In this document: in pieces, positions 7,884-50,388 of the stretch
Position numbering within the stretch: the stretch's first letter is position 1
Layout of the letters: every line of letters starts with the position of its first letter
NCBI GenBank assembly: GCA_038247415.1
Contig: JBBRUX010000028.1
Span: 1 to 50,388, forward strand
Length of the DNA: 50,388 nucleotides
Reading direction: 5' to 3'
Source: Chitinivibrionales bacterium
GTDB taxonomy: Bacteria > Fibrobacterota > Chitinivibrionia > Chitinivibrionales > WJKA01
The notes under the pieces: model-generated
Database searches by the model: none
Told to the model about the DNA's origin: nothing
Seen by the model: the letters and a program-made list of their open reading frames with translations, nothing else
Program-made: the position numbers and the translations under genes

Positions 7884-8885
7884 ATGAATATAGCAATTGT
7901 TGGAAGCGGAGCCGTGGGAAGTCTGTTGGGTGCATTCCTTGTTAGAAAAGGGCACTCGGTGACGCTGGTATGCCGTCCCGACCATGCCAGCGCTATCCAG
8001 AAAAATGGGCTTACCATTAAAGCAAACCTCAATTCCTTGTGCGTAGCCCTTCCTGTTGTTCATTCTCTTGCCTTTAAAGCAGATATCATCTTTCTTGCTG
8101 TCAAATATACCGACTTAAGCGCTACCTGCGCAAGCATTCATCCGTATGCAGCAGGATGTATTGTGGTTACTTTGCAAAACGGTGTTATGTGCGACGATCT
8201 TTGCCAAGCCATGCTTCCTCAAAGCACCCTTGTTGGAGGCATCGTTTTATTTAACGCACAATATTTTTCTGCCGGTGTCATTACCTATGGTGCCCAAGGA
8301 TCTATTCTTGTTGGAGATCCCCACGGGTTATCCCCTCAAGCTGTTGACACTGTGGCAACACTTCTGGGAAGCATCATGCCATGCACCAAGGTGAGCACCA
8401 TTAAAAACTTTCGCTATGCAAAGCTTTTAGTCAATAGCATTAATAATAGCCTCGATGCACTCACCAGTATGCCCCTTAATCAATGTATGGATCACCCCGA
8501 ACTCAGAATAATCGGGCTTCGCATTTTGCGCGAAACGGTTTCCGTTTTAAGGCATGCAAAAATCCCGCTTCGTAATACAGCAGGATTTAAAATACGCGAT
8601 CTTGTGCTCATTGCAGCGCTGCCTTTATGGATTGGTTCATTAATCTTGTGGCTTCGCATGCACAAGCGCCGCCAACGAGATATTTTTTCTTCAACCATTC
8701 AAAGTCTCATTCGTCACAAAGCTACCGAAATAGATTTTCTGCACGGCGAAATTGTACGTCTTGCAGCTTCACTGCAACTCAAGGCGCCCTACAATCAAAA
8801 AGTTGTTTCGCTGATACACACCATCGAACAAACCCATATTTTCTATTCACCAGAGGAATTGGTTCATCACTTTTCCCGTTTGTAA
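7884..8885 (+). CDS. panE: Ketopantoate reductase family protein
   Basis: GSGAVG Rossmann motif, AVK, LQNG, KLLVN and TEIDFLHGEIV motifs. Confidence 0.8.
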   Translation: MNIAIVGSGAVGSLLGAFLVRKGHSVTLVCRPDHASAIQKNGLTIKANLNSLCVALPVVHSLAFKADIIFLAVKYTDLSATCASIHPYAAGCIVVTLQNGVMCDDLCQAMLPQSTLVGGIVLFNAQYFSAGVITYGAQGSILVGDPHGLSPQAVDTVATLLGSIMPCTKVSTIKNFRYAKLLVNSINNSLDALTSMPLNQCMDHPELRIIGLRILRETVSVLRHAKIPLRNTAGFKIRDLVLIAALPLWIGSLILWLRMHKRRQRDIFSSTIQSLIRHKATEIDFLHGEIVRLAASLQLKAPYNQKVVSLIHTIEQTHIFYSPEELVHHFSRL

Positions 8886-8888
8886 CCT

Positions 8889-9872
8889 ATGGAACAAACT
8901 CAAACCCTGCCACGTACGCGCAATAAACGAATCGATGAATTTCGTGGTGCCACGATCATGCTTATGGTAATAGCCAATTATATTGGAAATATTCACGGAA
9001 TACCTGCGTGGCTTAAACACCCCAAAGATATCGGTCTTACTATCATCGATTTTATTGCTCCACTTTTTATGCTTGCGGTTGCTTTGTCACTGAGGACATC
9101 TGTCGTGCGTCGCATTGAGCATTCAGGAAGAGCCAACACCACTCGACACATCCTATCCCGTGCATTCGCGCTCATCGGCATAGGTACGCTTTTTTCATCT
9201 GCAGACGTCCTCTTTTCTGGCTCTCATAGCCCTCTCTTGTGGGGAGTTTTACAAGCGATAGGCGCCTCAATTGCAATCGCATATTCCATGCTTTCGCTCC
9301 ATTGGCTCTGGCGAATTACTGTTGCAACGCTGCTTTTAATTGGATACCAGTTTGGCTTGGAACATGGGTGGCAAGCCCTTGTCCTCGCTTCTTCTCATGG
9401 AGGAATTTACGCAGCCCTTTCATGGACAGCCTTGCTACTCTTATTTACGGTGATTGTCGAACTCTACGACAACCGTCAACATGCCCGATTGCTCGTTTAC
9501 GCCGTGTCTCTGCTTTTTATAATCTTTGGCATTCTATTAGCCTACTGTGGAATACCAATCAGCAAAGCCAGGATGACCATAAGTTTTGTATTTCTTGTTG
9601 CAGGGCTTTGCCCACTTGTATATATAGCATATTGTTCTTTTGTAAATATCTTTTCGATTACACATGCCGGGTTAAGCATGTGGGGGAAAAATTCTCTTGT
9701 TCTTTTTGGCCTTCATGGAATTCTGATAGGTGCTGCTTCTATCCCTAAAAACCCAGCAATTTACACCCATGCAAAAGGCGCTGCTATTCTTTTAGGGCTT
9801 GCCATCTGTTTTGCTGTGCTGCACACCGTAGCTTTTTTACTTGATAAACACAATAAGATTATTTCTTTATGA
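8889..9872 (+). CDS. Heparan-alpha-glucosaminide N-acetyltransferase-like membrane protein
   Basis: RIDEFRG..I.LM..N, conserved His, D.I.P.F and GVLQAIG motifs; multiple TM helices. Confidence 0.75.
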   Translation: MEQTQTLPRTRNKRIDEFRGATIMLMVIANYIGNIHGIPAWLKHPKDIGLTIIDFIAPLFMLAVALSLRTSVVRRIEHSGRANTTRHILSRAFALIGIGTLFSSADVLFSGSHSPLLWGVLQAIGASIAIAYSMLSLHWLWRITVATLLLIGYQFGLEHGWQALVLASSHGGIYAALSWTALLLLFTVIVELYDNRQHARLLVYAVSLLFIIFGILLAYCGIPISKARMTISFVFLVAGLCPLVYIAYCSFVNIFSITHAGLSMWGKNSLVLFGLHGILIGAASIPKNPAIYTHAKGAAILLGLAICFAVLHTVAFLLDKHNKIISL

Positions 9873-10144
9873 CCTCAGAGCGCATGCACTGCCGCAAAGG
9901 ATGCGGGGCTTGCTGTAGTGCCATATCCATTAGTTCTCCGCTTCCGCATCATCCGGCTGGCAAAGCTGCGGGAATACGCTGCAGCAATCTTGATACTTTT
10001 AATGTGTGTTCTATTCATGGAACGCCAGAATATCCTGGGGTGTGTCAAAATCTGACCCCTATGGAGGATATGTGCGGGAATACCTATGAAGAAGCTTTTA
10101 GATATTTGGAGGAGTTGGAGAGATTGACGAAGCCGGAATTTTAG
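9869..10144 (+). CDS. YkgJ-family CxxCxxCC cysteine cluster protein
   Basis: CRKGCGACC..ISISSP, GK.AG.RC and CSIHG...P.VC motifs. Confidence 0.85.
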   Translation: MTSERMHCRKGCGACCSAISISSPLPHHPAGKAAGIRCSNLDTFNVCSIHGTPEYPGVCQNLTPMEDMCGNTYEEAFRYLEELERLTKPEF

Positions 10145-10285
10145 CAAACAGGATTTAAAAGATTAAGCTGGAAAGGGCTCGGTAGCCCTTTAAATCCAAC
10201 TCGGAAAATGCTTTCCAGATAGCCCAACCCCCTACCCCCACACTTGGGGTTTACTGAATATAATACTAAACTTCTAATTTCTGAG

Positions 10286-10495
10286 TTGTAAACGGAGTGC
10301 CACCGGCAGTGCGCGAGGACTCAGGCACGTAGTGCCGCATGGCTGAGCGCACCGGCTCGCGAAGCGAGAGCATGGAGGAAGCCGCATCGGAACACCCGAA
10401 GGGGTGGGCCCGCTTCGCTTGACTTAGGGGTGGTCTGCAGCAACCACCCTTAAGAACCTCAAGCTGATCCGGGACGAAGTGATGGGTGTTTACAA
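10286..10495. repeat. Structured repeat, copy D (divergent, with terminal inverted repeat)
   Basis: TTGTAAAC / GTTTACAA ends; core CAGGCAC-GTA-GTGCCGCA...ACCGGCTCGC-GAA-GCGAGAGC shared with the other three copies. Confidence 0.7.
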
Positions 10496-10550
10496 ACCAT
10501 AATGCCAAACTTTAAATTTCCGAATGGATTTTGTCGTGCTCTTATGCGCA

Positions 10551-10699
10551 AGGCAGGACTGGAGGGTGGTGGATGAACGAAGTGATTCCGCCAGTCTGGA
10601 GAGACCCAGGCACTCTGTGCCGCAGGGATTGACAGACCGGCTCACGAAGTGAGAGCCCAAAAGGAGGGCCGACCGGCCTCAGGCCGGATGCGCCCAGAT
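10551..10699. repeat. Structured ~150-nt repeat, copy A
   Basis: Colinear with 49788-49938 and with the reverse complement of 49516-49657; multi-hairpin. Confidence 0.9.
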
Positions 10700-11232
10700 A
10701 TTTGAATTAGTATCCCCCTTATCATCTCATACTCCTTCTCATGCTGCACAAAATGAGGCGGGCACTCTTTACATATTCTACATAATTCAGGATACTTAAC
10801 AAATCGCACTGCCGAAACTTCTTCTGTTTGAAGTACACACTGGGCCACTCCCACATCGAGATTAACATAGTAAATATCGGTAAACTCGCAATCATCAACA
10901 TTTATAGCAATGTTTGTATATCTAACCTTTTCTGTAGCAAGAAAATTAAGCTGTTCTGGTTCAACCTTAAGGCCAAGCTCTTCGTAAAGCTCACGCGCTG
11001 CACCCTCAACCGATGTATCTCCCGCGCAAAGGTGTCCAGCAGCAGAAACATCCCAAAATCCCGGGAACGTTTGTTTAGAACATGATCGAAGTTGAAAAAG
11101 CACCTCGCCCTTTGGGTTAATAACCCACACATGCGCCGATTTATGCCAGATCCCCTGCCGATGGGCTTCGTCACGAGCAACTTGGTTTGCCGTTGGAAGT
11201 CCTTGGTCGGTTACAATGTCAAAAAACTCCAT
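10642..11232 (-). CDS. NUDIX hydrolase (IDI-like)
   Basis: H..G.WH and WDVSAAGH motifs, Nudix box G.....GAARELYEELGL. The C-terminal ~19 codons lie inside repeat copy A. Confidence 0.85.
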   Translation of the reverse strand: MEFFDIVTDQGLPTANQVARDEAHRQGIWHKSAHVWVINPKGEVLFQLRSCSKQTFPGFWDVSAAGHLCAGDTSVEGAARELYEELGLKVEPEQLNFLATEKVRYTNIAINVDDCEFTDIYYVNLDVGVAQCVLQTEEVSAVRFVKYPELCRICKECPPHFVQHEKEYEMIRGILIQISGRIRPEAGRPSFWALTS

Positions 11233-11234
11233 TA

Positions 11235-11747
11235 CTAAAAATGCTCCCATCGAACTACATCTGAAAGCAGTTTACGTTTTTTTTGAGGGGGCGTTGCTAA
11301 AGGATATCCTAGCGGCGTAATTAGAATTGGTTCCCAATCTGCTGGAATGCGCAAAAGCTGTACGGCCGCATTTCGATCAAAAGCAGCAATAAAACAGGTT
11401 CCAAGCCCTTGTTCCGTGGCAGCAAGAATCATATGATCCATAGCAAGAGCGGCATCTACCATTGCATAGGATAGTCCATCGGCACGTTTCCAGGCCGCAC
11501 TTTTAGAAACACACACGATAATATATACTGGTGCTGTTAAAAACCAGTCGCGAATATATACCGACCCCATACCTTGGCGAACTTCTTCGCTGGTTACAAC
11601 AATAAACGTCCACGGCTGAATATTACATGCCGAAGGAGCGATAGTGCCCGCTGTAAGAACGGTTTCGAGGATTTCGGGGGAAATCGGCGTGTTTGCATAG
11701 GAACGAACAGAGTAGCGTGAAGCTGCTAAATCGAAAAAGGTTGTCAT
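11235..11747 (-). CDS. Nitroreductase family protein
   Basis: RYSVRSY, APSACNIQPW and GLGTCFI motifs; GAGGA RBS. Confidence 0.9.
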   Translation of the reverse strand: MTTFFDLAASRYSVRSYANTPISPEILETVLTAGTIAPSACNIQPWTFIVVTSEEVRQGMGSVYIRDWFLTAPVYIIVCVSKSAAWKRADGLSYAMVDAALAMDHMILAATEQGLGTCFIAAFDRNAAVQLLRIPADWEPILITPLGYPLATPPQKKRKLLSDVVRWEHF

Positions 11748-11897
11748 ACTATTTCCTCTCATTTTATCTGTGCATCAAAGAGTGTATTTTGATATAATAC
11801 AATACTACGTATTGCATCTCCTAAAAAAGGTTCTGCGTAGGTTCTTTTTCTAAAATACGCATTTTCATTCAACTCGGATAAGGAATTTTGCACCCCT

Positions 11898-13337
11898 ATG
11901 GCACATACCGATTCATACGTCAATCCGCTCATCGAACGATACGCAAGTCAGGCAATTTCATATGTCTTTTCACCAGACTTTAAATTTTCAACATGGCGTA
12001 AGCTGTGGGTTGCCCTGGCGACCTGTGAACAAGAGCTTGGTTTACCAATTACCACCGAACAAATCGAAGAACTAAAAGCTCATATTTCAGATATCGATTA
12101 CGCAGCAGCAAATGCCTACGAGAAAAAAACACGTCACGATGTCATGGCTCATGTGCTTACCTATGGCGATGTATGTCCGCTCGCTAAACCTATCATTCAT
12201 CTTGGCGCAACCAGTGCGTATGTTGGCGATAATACCGACCTTATCCAGATTAAAGAAGGCTCTAAAATTATTCTGCAACGATTGCGCAAACTTATTCACA
12301 CGCTACGCGATTTTGCACTGCGCGAACAATCGACCGCAACCCTTGGATTTACCCATTTTCAATCTGCCCAACTTGTTACAGTTGGTAAACGTGCAACCCT
12401 CTGGATGCTCGAACTGTGCCTGGATGCCCAGGCGCTGCTTTCGTATACCGAAACTCTTCCCTTTCTTGGCGTTAAGGGAACCACAGGAACCCAGGCGAGC
12501 TTTTTAAGTCTTTTTAATGGCGATCACGAAAAAGTCAAGAAACTTGATTCGCTCACGTCTCATGCCATGGGTTTTGATACAGTACTTCCCGTTGCTGGCC
12601 AAACCTACACCCGCAAGCTGGATGCCCAAATTGCTGCCATTCTTTCGGGGGTTGCCCAGTCACTTCACAAAATGGCAAACGACATTAGGCTCCTTGCTCA
12701 TCTTAAAGAAATAGAGGAACCCTTCGAAAAAGACCAGATAGGGTCGTCGGCAATGGCCTATAAAAGAAACCCCATGCGCTCGGAGCGTATTACCGCCCTT
12801 TCTCGTTTTGTAATAACGCTCTCGGTATCGCCTGCCCTTACCGCAGCCGAGCAATGGTTCGAGCGTACACTCGACGATTCGGCAAATAAAAGACTGGCCA
12901 TACCCGAATTATTTCTAGCTACCGATGCCATGCTTATCATTGCGGAAAATGTAGCACATGGCTTGGTGGTTTATCCCGAAGTAATTAAACGACACATTAA
13001 CGCCGAGCTCCCTTTTATGGCCACCGAAAATATTCTTATGGGTGCCGTTAAAAATGGTGGAGATCGCCAGGAGCTCCACGAATTAATTCGGGTCCATTCA
13101 CAAGAGGCGGCCATGCAAGTAAAGCAATTTGGCCGGGAGAACGATTTACTCGATCGTATTGCTTCCGACCCAGCTTTTCATATGACGCGTGCCGATATCG
13201 ATGCAATCCTTAATATTTCGGATTTTGTTGGACGAGCGCCAATGCAGGTTGTAGAATTTATGAAAAGCACGGTAGATCCGTTGCTTGAACGGCTCTTACC
13301 CTTTGGCACTGCAACAGACGTCGCTCTTACGGTTTAA
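11898..13337 (+). CDS. purB: Adenylosuccinate lyase
   Basis: RHDVMAH, HLGATS and GSSAMAYKRNP signatures. Confidence 0.95.
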   Translation: MAHTDSYVNPLIERYASQAISYVFSPDFKFSTWRKLWVALATCEQELGLPITTEQIEELKAHISDIDYAAANAYEKKTRHDVMAHVLTYGDVCPLAKPIIHLGATSAYVGDNTDLIQIKEGSKIILQRLRKLIHTLRDFALREQSTATLGFTHFQSAQLVTVGKRATLWMLELCLDAQALLSYTETLPFLGVKGTTGTQASFLSLFNGDHEKVKKLDSLTSHAMGFDTVLPVAGQTYTRKLDAQIAAILSGVAQSLHKMANDIRLLAHLKEIEEPFEKDQIGSSAMAYKRNPMRSERITALSRFVITLSVSPALTAAEQWFERTLDDSANKRLAIPELFLATDAMLIIAENVAHGLVVYPEVIKRHINAELPFMATENILMGAVKNGGDRQELHELIRVHSQEAAMQVKQFGRENDLLDRIASDPAFHMTRADIDAILNISDFVGRAPMQVVEFMKSTVDPLLERLLPFGTATDVALTV

Positions 13338-20340: not shown

Positions 20341-20427
20341 TGGTGCGGTTGGTCGGACTCGAACCGACACAGGATTGCTCCCACTACCCCCTCAAAGTAG
20401 CGTGTCTACCAGTTTCACCACAACCGC
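20341..20427 (-). tRNA. tRNA-Leu(GAG)
   Basis: GCGGTTG acceptor stem, anticodon arm CTACT-TT-GAG-GG-GGTAG, long variable arm, GGTTCGAGTCC, encoded CCA; downstream of secG. Confidence 0.95.
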
Positions 20428-48576: not shown

Positions 48577-49494
48577 ATGGACACACCACCCAATCAAAAA
48601 GAAAAGCGCATGCTCATTACGGGAGCATCGGGATTTTTAGGCTATAACCTCTGTAAAGAAGCTCTCGATTCTGGATATTCCGTTTACGCTCTTGTCAATA
48701 AGCGCCCCATTTCCAAAAGGCGTGTTACAACAATTTCGGGAAATGTGAGTGATGCTGCTTTTATTGGGGATCTTTTTACTACGGTTAAACCCCACGCTGT
48801 AATTCATGCTGCTGCTCTTGCCGATCCGAATGCATGCCAGAAAGACCCAAAACTATCTTATTTAGTAAATGTTGGAGGTTCCCAAAATATCGCCAGAGCA
48901 GCGCAACGCCACAATGCCCACTGCGCATTCATTTCAACAGATCTCGTTTTTGATGGCACCAAGGCTCCTTATACAGAAGACTCCCCCGTGTGCCCAATCT
49001 CGGTGTATGGAGAGCATAAAGTAGTAGCGGAACAATCCTTAATTGAATTGTGTGAACGAGGGATAATTTGCAGAATGCCACTCATGTTTGGCTATGGGGG
49101 AGAAAAGGGCGCAAGCTTTCTTAAGGCGATGATTAGTGCTTTGCGCAATAATCAACCCCTTAAACTCTTCTCCGATGAATACCGCACGCCACTGGATGGG
49201 GTAAGCGCTGCCCAAGGAATTCTTAAAGCACTCACGTTACACAAAAAATGCCTGCACCTTGGTGGATCAACACGCATTTCCCGCCTCGATTTTGGAAAAA
49301 AGGTTGCAGCAGTTCTTGGCATTTCGGCAACCATAGAACATGTATTACACAAGGACGTAACAATGCCAGCACCGCGACCGGCAGATGTTTCATTTGATAG
49401 TTCCAGGGCAGTATCCTTAGGATATAACCCGCTTGCCATGGAGATTGCGCTTGCTGAGGAATGTACAAAAATAGAAGCTTGCCTGGACCATTGA
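48577..49494 (+). CDS. dTDP-4-dehydrorhamnose reductase (RmlD)-like SDR
   Basis: TGASGFLG, HAAA, STDLVFDG, YGEHK and RPAD.S motifs. Confidence 0.85.
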   Translation: MDTPPNQKEKRMLITGASGFLGYNLCKEALDSGYSVYALVNKRPISKRRVTTISGNVSDAAFIGDLFTTVKPHAVIHAAALADPNACQKDPKLSYLVNVGGSQNIARAAQRHNAHCAFISTDLVFDGTKAPYTEDSPVCPISVYGEHKVVAEQSLIELCERGIICRMPLMFGYGGEKGASFLKAMISALRNNQPLKLFSDEYRTPLDGVSAAQGILKALTLHKKCLHLGGSTRISRLDFGKKVAAVLGISATIEHVLHKDVTMPAPRPADVSFDSSRAVSLGYNPLAMEIALAEECTKIEACLDH

Positions 49495-49515
49495 TAAAAT
49501 ATTAAGATAAGCTTA

Positions 49516-49657
49516 TGGGCATTCCGGCTTTGCCGTCGCCCCTCCTTATGGGCTCTGGCTTTGCCAGCCGGTCTTTCATGCCATGCGTCACTTTGTGCCT
49601 GAGGCATTCAAGACTGAAAGCTTCACTCCGTTTCGCTTTCACCCTCCAGTCCTGGCT
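49516..49657. repeat. Structured ~150-nt repeat, copy C (inverted relative to A and B)
   Basis: TGGGC..CCGGC..GCCG TCG.CCCTCCTT.TGGGCTCT..AGCCGGTCT..GTGCCTG..AGACTG..CACCCTCCAGTCCTG aligns with the reverse complement of 10551-10699. Confidence 0.85.
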
Positions 49658-49680
49658 AATGCGCTTGACATGAAAGGGGC

Positions 49681-49769
49681 CTGAACATGATTACCAGGAT
49701 TATGCGATTACCATGATGAACTCGGGAGAAATCAGGATCATAAAGGTAATCATGTGAATCAAGGTTCAG
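49681..49769. repeat. AT-rich inverted repeat with ~9-nt GATT/AATC periodicity
   Basis: CTGAACATGATT ... AATCAAGGTTCAG ends; GATT at 49689, 49698 and 49706; AATC at 49730, 49748 and 49757. Confidence 0.6.
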
Positions 49770-49787
49770 ATAGTTGACTTTCGCGAC

Positions 49788-49938
49788 AGGCAGGGCTGAA
49801 GTGTGATGGATGAACACCGTGAGTCCATCAGTCTAAAGAGACCCAGGCACCTAGTGCCGCAGGGTTTGACAGACCGGCTCACGAAGTGAGAGCCTGAAAG
49901 GAGGCCCGACGGCGCTCTTGGCGCCGGCGTGCCCAGAT
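49788..49938. repeat. Structured ~150-nt repeat, copy B
   Basis: Colinear with copy A, including identical TTGACAGACCGGCTCACGAAGTGAGAGCC. Confidence 0.9.
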
Positions 49939-50024
49939 TCTTATTTCTTTGTATTCCCCTTTATATCCACCTGCTCCAAGATTCCCGGTGCACAAAAAGC
50001 GAGAGTTTTACAAGTGCCTCTTTA

Positions 50025-50388
50025 TCATGACTTTTGTCTCAACTTGACAATTTCATCAATTGTCATTTCGGTTGCCTTTGAAATCTTATCGTCTTCAATT
50101 CCTAGTGCAATAAGTTTTTTGGCAACTTCAATCGTGCCTTCAATCTTCCCCTCAATCTTCCCCTCAATCTTCCCTTCAATCTTCCCTTCAATCTTCCCCT
50201 CAATCTTCCCCTCAATCTTCCCCTCAATCTTCCCTTCAATCTTCCCTTCAATCTTCCCCTTCATTGCCCCTTCAATCAAACCCTCTTCTTTTGCTGTATC
50301 CAATGAATTCTTCATATCTCGATAATACTTCAAACTATCTTCATACGCTTCGCGTTCACCCGGCTTGAATTGAGCAATCTCCGCACAT
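50025..50388 (-). CDS. Rpn-family PD-(D/E)XK nuclease / putative transposase, 3' part (runs off the window)
   Basis: Frame open to the window edge: AEIAQFKPGEREAYEDSLKYYRD..NSLDTAKEEG, EGK repeats, A..L...G.....I...T.....EI C-terminal helix-turn-helix. Confidence 0.85.
   Translation of the reverse strand, partial: CAEIAQFKPGEREAYEDSLKYYRDMKNSLDTAKEEGLIEGAMKGKIEGKIEGKIEGKIEGKIEGKIEGKIEGKIEGKIEGKIEGTIEVAKKLIALGIEDDKISKATEMTIDEIVKLRQKS
50139..50258. repeat. 12-bp coding tandem repeat x10 (GKIE)
   Basis: Ten YTCAATCTTCCC units. Confidence 0.95.

Follow-up and report, generated by a model that had tools for sequence, protein, structure and literature searches.

The 50,388-nt stretch of DNA analysed here, contig JBBRUX010000028.1 of a Chitinivibrionales bacterium (assembly GCA_038247415.1) and referred to below as the window, contains four copies, A to D, of a structured element of approximately 160 nt that lies dispersed in intergenic DNA. 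Copies D and A are located between a small CxxC-type open reading frame (ORF; 9869-10144, + strand) and a Nudix gene (10642-11250, - strand), and copies C and B between an RmlD-like gene (48577-49494, + strand) and the 3' part of an Rpn/PD-(D/E)XK-like gene (50025-50387, - strand). All four copies had been reported in a preliminary description of the window, and they are indeed present in its sequence at the positions given there. In agreement with this, a covariance model of the family (R1) found exactly four matches in the contig, representing full-length copy A (10536-10709, + strand; 164.8 bits, E 1.8e-47), copy D (10281-10381, + strand; model positions 24-131, 62.4 bits), full-length copy C (49503-49672, - strand; 179.8 bits) and copy B (49773-49948, + strand; 153.1 bits), which is full length but chimeric. 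For copy D, a match obtained with nhmmer (10289-10426) extends the feature to 10281-10426. The relatedness of A to D is evident from a mean column identity of 69% across the four aligned sequences.

The structure of the element was predicted with RNAalifold under RIBOSUM scoring from an alignment of 23 copies from the window's genome and comprises 45 modelled pairs in 10 helices; the coordinates of its parts are given here for copy A (+ strand), onto which the columns of alignment A2 were mapped. The two ends of the element, about 140 nt apart, are united by P1, a GC-rich closing stem of 5 bp (10546-10550 with 10689-10693) that occurs in the variants GCGCA/UGCGC, GCAUU/AAUGC, GCGUU/AACGC, GCGUA/UACGC, GCACG/CGUGC and GCGUC/GGCGC. 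P1 is followed by P1b, a stem of 3 bp (10552-10554 with 10668-10670; GGC/GCC, GCC/GGC or GGG/CCC), and by a conserved purine-rich internal loop, in which AGGA-CU-GNA faces GNA-AG-GAGG and two CU/AG pairs are formed (10559-10560 with 10662-10663). The 4-bp helix P2a (10564-10567 with 10655-10658; GGGU/GCCC, AGGU/GCCU, GUGU/GCAC or AUGU/GCAU), which contains a conserved U-G pair, then leads into a four-way junction with three hairpins of variable length, P2 (10568-10573 with 10587-10592), P3 (10594-10637, with GGCAC at 10609-10613 pairing with GTGCC at 10617-10621 at its tip) and P4 (10641-10645 with 10649-10653). A further hairpin, P6 (10673-10678 with 10682-10687), precedes the 3' strand of P1, after which a conserved CCCA(A/G)A and a U-rich tail are found (CCCAGAT at 10694-10700 in copy A). 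Length varies in P2, P3, P4 and P6, and one subfamily carries an extra domain after P4; the sequences conserved across genera are those of the junction and the loops. The loop of the P3 tip reads TCT in A, CTA in B, AAA in C and GTA in D. The stems listed in the preliminary description correspond to real helices of this model: TCAC/GTGA, TGGC/GCCA and TCGC/GCGA represent P4, CGGTCTG/CAGACTG and its variants the outer part of P3, GGCAC-NNN-GTGCC the P3 tip, TGATGGA/TCCATCA and TGAAAGC/GCTTTCA P2, and CCGGCC/GGCCGG and CGGCGC/GCGCCG P6. Its conserved linkers were likewise recovered, as the reverse complements of AAGGAGG, AGAGC, ACCGGCT and AACG.AGTGA; the long-range P1 as well as P1b and P2a had been overlooked.

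Strong covariation, both within the genome and across genera, supports the conclusion that this structure is under selection, as had been proposed from the four window copies. In the 23 copies from the window's own genome 90.3% of 1030 cells are paired, compared to 37-41% when the partners are slid by 1-3 columns, and both sides change in 22 of the 45 pairs (159 cells). The covariation score of these copies was 0.414 versus at most 0.094, and a score of this size was reached in none of 500 shuffles. Among 24 copies from 19 loci of other genomes, aligned by fitting to the covariance model and hence in a manner that leans towards the structure, 93.8% of the cells pair and changes on both sides affect 42 of the 45 pairs. 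When 20 copies (15 of them from other genomes) were aligned with plain MAFFT, that is, without such fitting, P1, P1b, P6 and the P3 tip were recovered with both-side changes and the variable inner helices were lost. Over all 33 distinct cores, 1297 of 1435 cells pair.

The strand that folds is opposite to the one on which the element had originally been read. Since G-U cells outnumber A-C/C-A cells by 77 to 30 in the 33 distinct cores, we assign the folded strand as + for copies A, B and D and - for copy C. The stem first noted as TGGCGGA/TCCACCA illustrates the difference, as it contains a C-A mismatch on the strand of the preliminary description where the + strand has U-G. Of the 23 own-genome copies, 21 retain one particular U-G pair, and in 17 of the 24 copies from other genomes P2a has preserved its U-G pair. 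Single-sequence folding also favoured the sense strand in each of the four copies of the window, by a clear margin in A (z -2.71 for sense, at -62 kcal/mol, versus -1.42 for antisense), B (-3.49 versus -2.41) and C (-2.46 at -50.9 kcal/mol on the - strand versus -0.81 at -42.9 kcal/mol on the + strand). Two additional interactions were considered and rejected, namely an alternative closing helix CUGG/CCAG from single-sequence prediction, which lacks covariation and crosses P1, and a pseudoknot GGACUG/CAGUCU, which is not kept in the C12-type subfamily.

The individual window copies differ in their completeness. In copy C, P1 is formed by 49658-49662 with 49519-49523, the P3 tip has one C-A mismatch, and the 3' end lies approximately 9-13 nt from the stop codon of the convergent RmlD-like gene. 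Copy B combines a 5' part similar to the C24-type subfamily with a 3' part similar to the C19-type, as seen in the rows of alignment A2; its P1 (49783-49787 with 49928-49932) retains three of five pairs, and P2a is weakened. Copy D begins within the P2 loop and thus lacks the 5' strands of P1, P1b, P2a and P2, P3 and P4 being kept, and it carries an extra 3' domain that it shares with a subfamily. Copy A contains, in antisense, about 20 codons from the end of the Nudix ORF (overlap 10642-10709), and the insertion of copy A seems to have replaced the original end of this gene.

The family extends far beyond the four copies counted initially. Searches of the window's genome (3.84 Mb in 99 contigs) with nhmmer gave 59 matches at first and 61 subsequently, of which 29 are close to full length, and R1 gave 73 matches at E <=0.001 among 150 scored candidates, so that we put the size of the family in this genome at about 60-73 copies. 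Many of the matches touch contig ends. Contigs of four DNA runs covering positions 8000-12500 of the window break at the repeats, where word depth rises from approximately 13 to 180-530; none of their joints in this interval runs across an empty site, all of them being opposite-strand joints or back-joints as is typical of repeats. Because contigs break and depth jumps at the repeats, the assembly probably undercounts the copies. The model search of relatives, which the preliminary description had proposed together with that of the genome, found the element in 20 of 61 genomes of the order, the window's own included, and the remaining 41 had no match. Its distribution is patchy. None of the six other genomes of the window's own family has a match, and in one other genus five of six genomes carry 33-43 or more copies each and the sixth, which is 99% complete, carries none; copy numbers of 1-6 were found in several relatives. 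Of 151 genomes sampled across the phylum, 25 matched, 24 of which belong to the window's order, and among 79 genomes of other families one matched, weakly. A scan of a genome collection returned two records, both from metagenome-assembled genomes (MAGs) of Fibrobacteres/Fibrobacterota and both confirmed by the model; at least 53 and at least 74 matches, respectively, were counted in these two genomes. A metagenome collection yielded eight records, five of them confirmed by the model at E <=0.001, and in viral contigs the first of two search patterns gave a single match, which the model did not confirm, and the second gave none.

The preliminary description had not recognised the family, and comparison with Rfam 15 agrees with this: at the gathering threshold the only match in the whole window was a tRNA at 20344-20427. 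When the two copy-bearing regions were searched at E <=10, three weak matches were obtained, all far below gathering scores, with sR45 (E 1.3) overlapping the extra 3' domain of copy D, isrN (E 0.015, 21.5 bits compared with a gathering score of 44) in the spacer between B and C, and snR77 (E 9.9) mainly in the flank of copy C; seven loci of other genomes gave no match at E <=0.1. A description of the family was not found in full-text searches of the literature, the extent of which was listings and the openings of abstracts. These results support the view that the family is uncatalogued. In the window ARAGORN called only the tRNA-Leu gene at 20341-20427 and no tRNA-like gene in any of the four copies, and an origin as a tRNA-derived repeat was rejected on this basis, the four-way junction being cloverleaf-like in topology only.

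Comparison of orthologous loci and of paralogues provides evidence of turnover. At one intergenic site the element is present in genome G148, and the orthologous site contains a different sequence of 150 nt in G122 and is shorter in G051, neither of them with the element. Filled and empty sites were among the things that the preliminary description had suggested to look for; at this locus, the 3' boundary in G148 was placed within approximately 8 nt of CGCCCAAG; exact ends could not be defined and a target duplication was unreadable at a flank identity of 76-88%. The left flank of a copy in G016 likewise has orthologues without the element in four congeners, synteny being lost on the other side and the exact boundary being unreadable. 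In a comparison of nearest paralogues (22 pairs at >=85% identity, which are not independent of each other), paired positions differ by 6.9% and unpaired positions by 8.7%; single changes in stems kept the pair in 30 cases and broke it in 66, and double changes kept it in 14 cases and broke it in two. We read these figures as weak constraint on single copies, with the fold being maintained in those lineages that keep multiplying. Many copies are chimeric, truncated or decaying. No inverted repeat of at least 14 nt was detected in either window region, and the flanks of the 29 near-full copies contain no matching duplication, which is weak evidence since the 5' boundaries are fuzzy. We rejected TTAT or CTTAT as a target duplication, since the motifs on the two sides of individual copies do not agree, and likewise a 16-nt direct repeat at 10100 and 10696, which by our own estimate is at about chance level.

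Sequences upstream of the copies are conserved as well and include putative promoters. Copy A is preceded by promoter-like boxes, identified by a consensus scan and by alignment (10489-10518, + strand), that consist of TTTACA (10489-10494), a spacer of 17 nt and TTAAAT (10512-10517); the consensus scan reads them with an 18-nt spacer and TAAATT, and P1 follows after a leader of about 28 nt. The module upstream of copy D (10150-10290, + strand), supported by BLAST, alignment and contig word depth, contains a terminator-like hairpin (GGGCTCGGTAGCCC then TTTAAAT) and promoter-like boxes (TTTACT at 10250-10255, 17 nt, TCTAAT at 10273-10278), and in an alignment of seven copies it joins the P2 loop of D directly. 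This module is itself a repeat: BLAST returned 23 matches (including the query) distributed over 14 of the genome's contigs, and its contig word depth of 530, compared to 13 in the flanks, is the highest of the region. It looks as if it were a portable promoter cassette. The corresponding first module type, found at A, at D and on contigs C1, C79, C70, C54 and C19, resembles a terminator hairpin followed by a sigma-70-type promoter, with TTTACA or TTTGCA, 17 nt and then TATGAT, TTAAAT or TCTAAT after the terminator-like hairpin. In six of the seven aligned copies the boxes are spaced by 17 nt of varying sequence, and in C19b they are weaker (TTACAA ... TTAAGC); among the seven, only the boxes of copy A were noted as flagged by the consensus scan. 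Judged from their sequence, these upstream boxes may give the copies a transcription of their own. Since the first module type also precedes a different repeat, the region appears as a mosaic of modules.

A second GC-rich structured repeat, 'X' (beginning with TTGTAAACACCCATCAC...), was observed at window positions 10457-10496 (inverted), C54 24030-24174, C88 4258-4395, C42 32595-32696 and C86 1914-2041, several of its copies being at contig ends. It is located behind the same promoter module, and the inverted 'X' fragment in the window provides the -35 box of copy A. A second upstream type is represented by the 100-nt spacer between the divergent copies C and B (49673-49772, no strand assigned), which recurs elsewhere in the genome. 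It is also present between divergent copies on C65, C24, C16 and, more loosely, C2, and it adjoins single copies on C17, C38 and C39, so that the unit of a C-type copy, the spacer and a B-type copy recurs, with five divergent pairs in total.

No gene recurs in cis. The 34 neighbouring ORFs at the 19 foreign loci represent varied housekeeping genes plus one DDE transposase, and a transposase, an integrase and a reverse transcriptase are all absent among 25 ORFs on six small copy-bearing contigs of the window's genome. Together with the many copies per genome, this bears out the earlier proposal of either a dispersed non-coding RNA or a non-autonomous mobile element. In the window, copies A, B and C lie, as had been described, in one orientation at gene 3' ends between convergent genes; this arrangement does not hold genome-wide, where the copies show no preferred orientation relative to the neighbouring genes (for upstream genes, 21 in the same and 19 in the opposite direction; for downstream genes, 26 and 25, respectively). 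Where the downstream gene is convergent, the 3' end of the element is mostly 0-25 nt from its stop codon, and in three cases the stop codon lies inside the terminal CTTAT; upstream distances to genes are 100-450 nt. The 3' boundary of the element is sharp, with unrelated sequence beyond, and conservation reaches further out on the 5' side. Copies have upstream flanks in common and downstream flanks that are not shared, which is consistent with the asymmetric distances to genes.

Several further observations were made in the flanks. On the 3' side of C24-type copies (C3 36090+, C24 27534+, C38 and C4) the terminal motif GGCGCCCA(T/G)ATTC recurs approximately 30 nt past the end of the element, and a solo 3' end resembling this motif also follows a copy in L032; the second terminal motif could be a target-site remnant or a binding site. 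Three tandem same-strand copies of the element are found at L037 793-1693 (G049) and at L040 887-1630 (G021), with a period of 354 nt and near-identical spacers in G049. Another dispersed repeat of approximately 180 nt (TGTGTTTTCTACCCTGAAAGAGGGCGTTGCGGGAGGGG...) adjoins the element at L058 1728-1909 (G148) and occurs on many contigs of G122 and G051, being multi-copy in G051, a genome without the RNA family. The Rpn/PD-(D/E)XK-like ORF next to copy B runs off the contig end and encodes the C-terminal part of a 'transposase'-like protein with ten tandem KIEG repeats and a weak Pfam match to PDDEXK_2 (E 0.0022). Its N-terminal part appears to be located at the beginning of contig C11 (Transposase_31 match, 20-331).

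Candidate partner proteins, of which four families were tested across the genomes, gave no indication of a link to the element. The nuclease, HUH transposase or reverse transcriptase genes that the preliminary description had considered possible companions were looked for beside the copies with negative result. A single Y1/HUH gene (PF01797) is present in the window's genome (contig C19, 51888-52208), and no element was detected within 1.5 kb of it, even by nhmmer with filters switched off. The Y1 family is present in 49 of the 61 genomes and absent from the RNA carriers G023, G034 and G037, and two copy-rich genomes are among those without it. The C19 gene encodes an IS200-like protein of 327 amino acids with a long C-terminal extension (51846-52829; L001 1459-2442), is single-copy in the genome and is flanked by its own unrelated 25-nt G-rich inverted repeat. 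The sole RVT_1 match in the genome is a truncated ORF of the group II intron reverse transcriptase/maturase type in two reading frames (C5 47318-47725; L072). The Rpn/PD-(D/E)XK-like gene was rejected as a partner, as it is not multi-copy, one Transposase_31 fragment being found on C11 and no match to PF12784. An autonomous insertion sequence related to the element was not seen among the 34 and 25 neighbour ORFs; since assemblies break at repeats, a multi-copy insertion sequence could be unassembled.

In our interpretation, A to D are members of an uncatalogued family with elements approximately 160 nt long, whose functional form would be an RNA, transcribed as the + strand in A, B and D and as the - strand in C. 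The dispersed unit would comprise the RNA module and the conserved upstream module and, being a small transcription unit that is self-contained and non-autonomous, would undergo bursts of multiplication in intergenic DNA. Its RNA fold would be kept since only copies producing correctly folded RNA would go on being propagated or retained, and most single copies would decay afterwards. To this reading, a non-autonomous, promoter-carrying small-RNA element that proliferates and whose fold is selected at the level of RNA, we give about an even chance of being correct. Observed are the fold and the asymmetry between its strands, how many copies there are and how patchily they are distributed, and that no gene recurs in cis; what we infer is that the upstream boxes drive transcription, that the element moves at the DNA level and that its propagation needs the fold. 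A more far-reaching version, which we consider improbable, is that a protein-free, promoter-carrying small-RNA gene constitutes a new kind of mobile element in which the RNA fold itself drives copying; the RNA might then recruit or guide an unlinked enzyme of the host or of an element, or be active itself, and the family would be a bacterial counterpart of short interspersed nuclear elements (SINEs), with 70 or more copies per genome within one order. Several points weigh against a proliferating RNA element. Paralogues within one genome share descent, so that the counts of paired cells overstate the number of independent events, and the near-neutral decay of single copies blurs how many of them are functional. 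Strand-specific wobble pairs could also arise as G-T in an intermediate of folded single-stranded DNA. Target-site duplications, terminal inverted repeats and a mobilising enzyme were not identified, movement being read from the distribution only. Finally, a convincing promoter-like site was not found in the spacer of the B/C pair, nor, by eye, in other genera, and an intrinsic terminator was not found after the element.

Alternatively, the copies could form a host-beneficial family of trans-acting small RNAs (sRNAs) that is kept for the use of the cell and not through selfish spread, for instance as a sponge for a GGA-binding protein such as CsrA, for which the window's genome has one gene. 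Such a function would agree with the several relatives that have just 1-6 copies, like ordinary sRNA genes, with the promoter-like boxes before some copies, and with the unbiased orientation relative to neighbouring genes that independent genes would show. Each copy has about five GGA motifs, and conserved unpaired GGA is found in AGGAC, UGGAG and AAGGAGG, in addition to CGGAG in the P2 loop of own-genome copies. However, this one motif in a hairpin loop is not conserved across genera, and most GGA is in the internal loop. Moreover, the element is missing from two thirds of the order's genomes (41/61), including all six other members of the window's family and one member of the copy-rich genus, and a set of at least 70 copies with chimeras, truncations and near-neutral loss of pairing is unlike a conserved host gene family. 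An sRNA family maintained for the host appears to us unlikely. The element could alternatively act as an intergenic repeat at the level of DNA or mRNA, in the manner of REP/BIME (repetitive extragenic palindromic sequences and bacterial interspersed mosaic elements), ERIC or MITE (miniature inverted-repeat transposable element) families, its hairpins forming in DNA, or in single-stranded DNA in the course of transposition, or serving on the opposite strand, the one read in the preliminary description, as 3'-untranslated stabilisers or terminators of the neighbouring genes. All three full window copies face the 3' end of a convergent gene, which would be expected of such a repeat, as would the usual distance of 0-25 nt to convergent stop codons and the three stops within CTTAT, the terminator-like signal that a scan flagged in the antisense of P6 followed by CCCTCCTTTT, the mosaics with other repeat modules, and the five divergent pairs, which resemble doublets. 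Yet the excess of G-U over A-C cells and the conserved U-G pair place the fold on the sense strand, and a closing stem and four-way junction are foreign to cruciform or terminator repeats; with a closing stem of such long range and a junction of this kind, RNA is also easier to invoke than folded single-stranded DNA.

Further evidence against an intergenic repeat of this kind comes from the unbiased orientation, and the replication-strand bias expected of single-stranded DNA elements was not clear either, as 15 copies have the element on the G-rich strand and 23 on the other (38 copies at an absolute GC skew of at least 0.01). With no inverted repeat of at least 14 nt in either region, and a Y1/HUH gene that has its own unrelated repeat and is lacking in two copy-rich genomes, we regard a DNA- or mRNA-level repeat as having a low probability. 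A relic or satellite of an RNA-guided mobile system, in which the element would be a scaffold of the TnpB omega-RNA type (PATE-like) or an IS110 bridge RNA and the variable 3' DNA its guide, would explain why the sequence beyond the sharp 3' boundary is unrelated and conservation extends further on the 5' side, and the size and branched fold are within the range of such scaffolds. Against this, no member of the TnpB zinc-ribbon family PF07282 was detected in the window's genome, the completeness of which is 96% (no separate search was made for IscB), and this family was found in three of 20 RNA carriers compared with seven of 61 genomes overall; IS110 (PF01548) has no match in the window's genome or in 10 other carriers (11 of 20 in total), and no gene of either type was seen beside any copy examined. 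Rfam, which we take to include families of the omega-RNA type, also gave no match. We consider a link to an RNA-guided system, as its relic or satellite, highly improbable and, if weakly, already refuted.

A ~160-nt RNA that combines a conserved four-way junction and cross-genus covariation with the lack of an Rfam entry is a candidate for a new class of RNA, in this case from a host order that is little studied and largely uncultured. For a complex RNA fold it is unusual that several lineages have at least 50-70 copies per genome and sister species have none, and the lack of any linked protein is likewise unusual. If it is true that the element requires the RNA for spreading, the family would point to an unknown route of transposition, and if it is true that the RNA serves the host, it would represent an exceptionally large family of sRNAs. 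In practical terms, the repeats fragment metagenome assemblies, many contigs of the window's genome ending inside copies, and they lengthen or shorten neighbouring ORFs, as exemplified by the Nudix ORF.

Comparison with known systems reveals partial similarities to several of them; the literature on such repeats includes Delihas (2011; PMC3184786) for REP/BIME and REPIN-RAYT and a 2024 review (PMC10969869) for bacterial MITEs. Integron attC sites are single imperfect hairpins with core sites, located in cassette arrays beside an integrase, and an attC identity of the element was rejected, its fold being branched and its copies dispersed among housekeeping genes; no search was made for an integron integrase. 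A REP consists of one hairpin with a length of 20-40 nt. Like REP/BIME sequences, the element is GC-rich, structured and intergenic, has dozens of copies per genome often just past stop codons, and at times forms inverted doublets and mosaics with other modules; it differs from them by its length, its long-range closing stem, its four-way junction and its strand-specific pairing. A difference from REPIN-RAYT systems is that no link to a RAYT was found, the sole Y1 gene having other flanks and Y1 not co-occurring with the family. Bacterial MITEs (Correia, ERIC and others), with a length of 100-400 bp, share with the element that they are non-autonomous, multi-copy and patchily distributed between species; some bring promoters with them, and they can change the transcripts of genes nearby. 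In contrast to a MITE, which forms one long hairpin from its inverted ends, the element has a branched fold, and terminal inverted repeats, a target-site duplication or a parent insertion sequence were not found for it. PATE elements and TnpB omega-RNAs of the IS200/IS605 family resemble it in having a scaffold of approximately 150 nt, in being multi-copy without an adjacent gene and in a sharp 3' end next to variable DNA, but differ in that TnpB does not co-occur with the family, no Rfam match is obtained and no link to Y1 was found.

Similarity to the sponge sRNAs CsrB and RsmZ is given by the several conserved GGA motifs per RNA and by the presence of a CsrA gene. However, the GGA motifs of CsrB and RsmZ are located in many hairpin loops and these RNAs are encoded by 1-5 gene copies, whereas the element has most of its GGA in one internal loop and occurs in tens of copies. 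Lastly, eukaryotic SINEs are, like this family in our interpretation, copies of a small-RNA gene that bring along their own transcription signals, form subfamilies, undergo bursts and decay, and depend on functions provided in trans. The element differs from them in that its promoter-like boxes lie upstream in the DNA, the reverse transcriptase of the genome is only a fragment, and ARAGORN called no tRNA-like gene in the four window copies. As the putative promoter is situated upstream in the DNA and is copied along with the element, this arrangement argues for a spread of the family at the level of DNA rather than of RNA.

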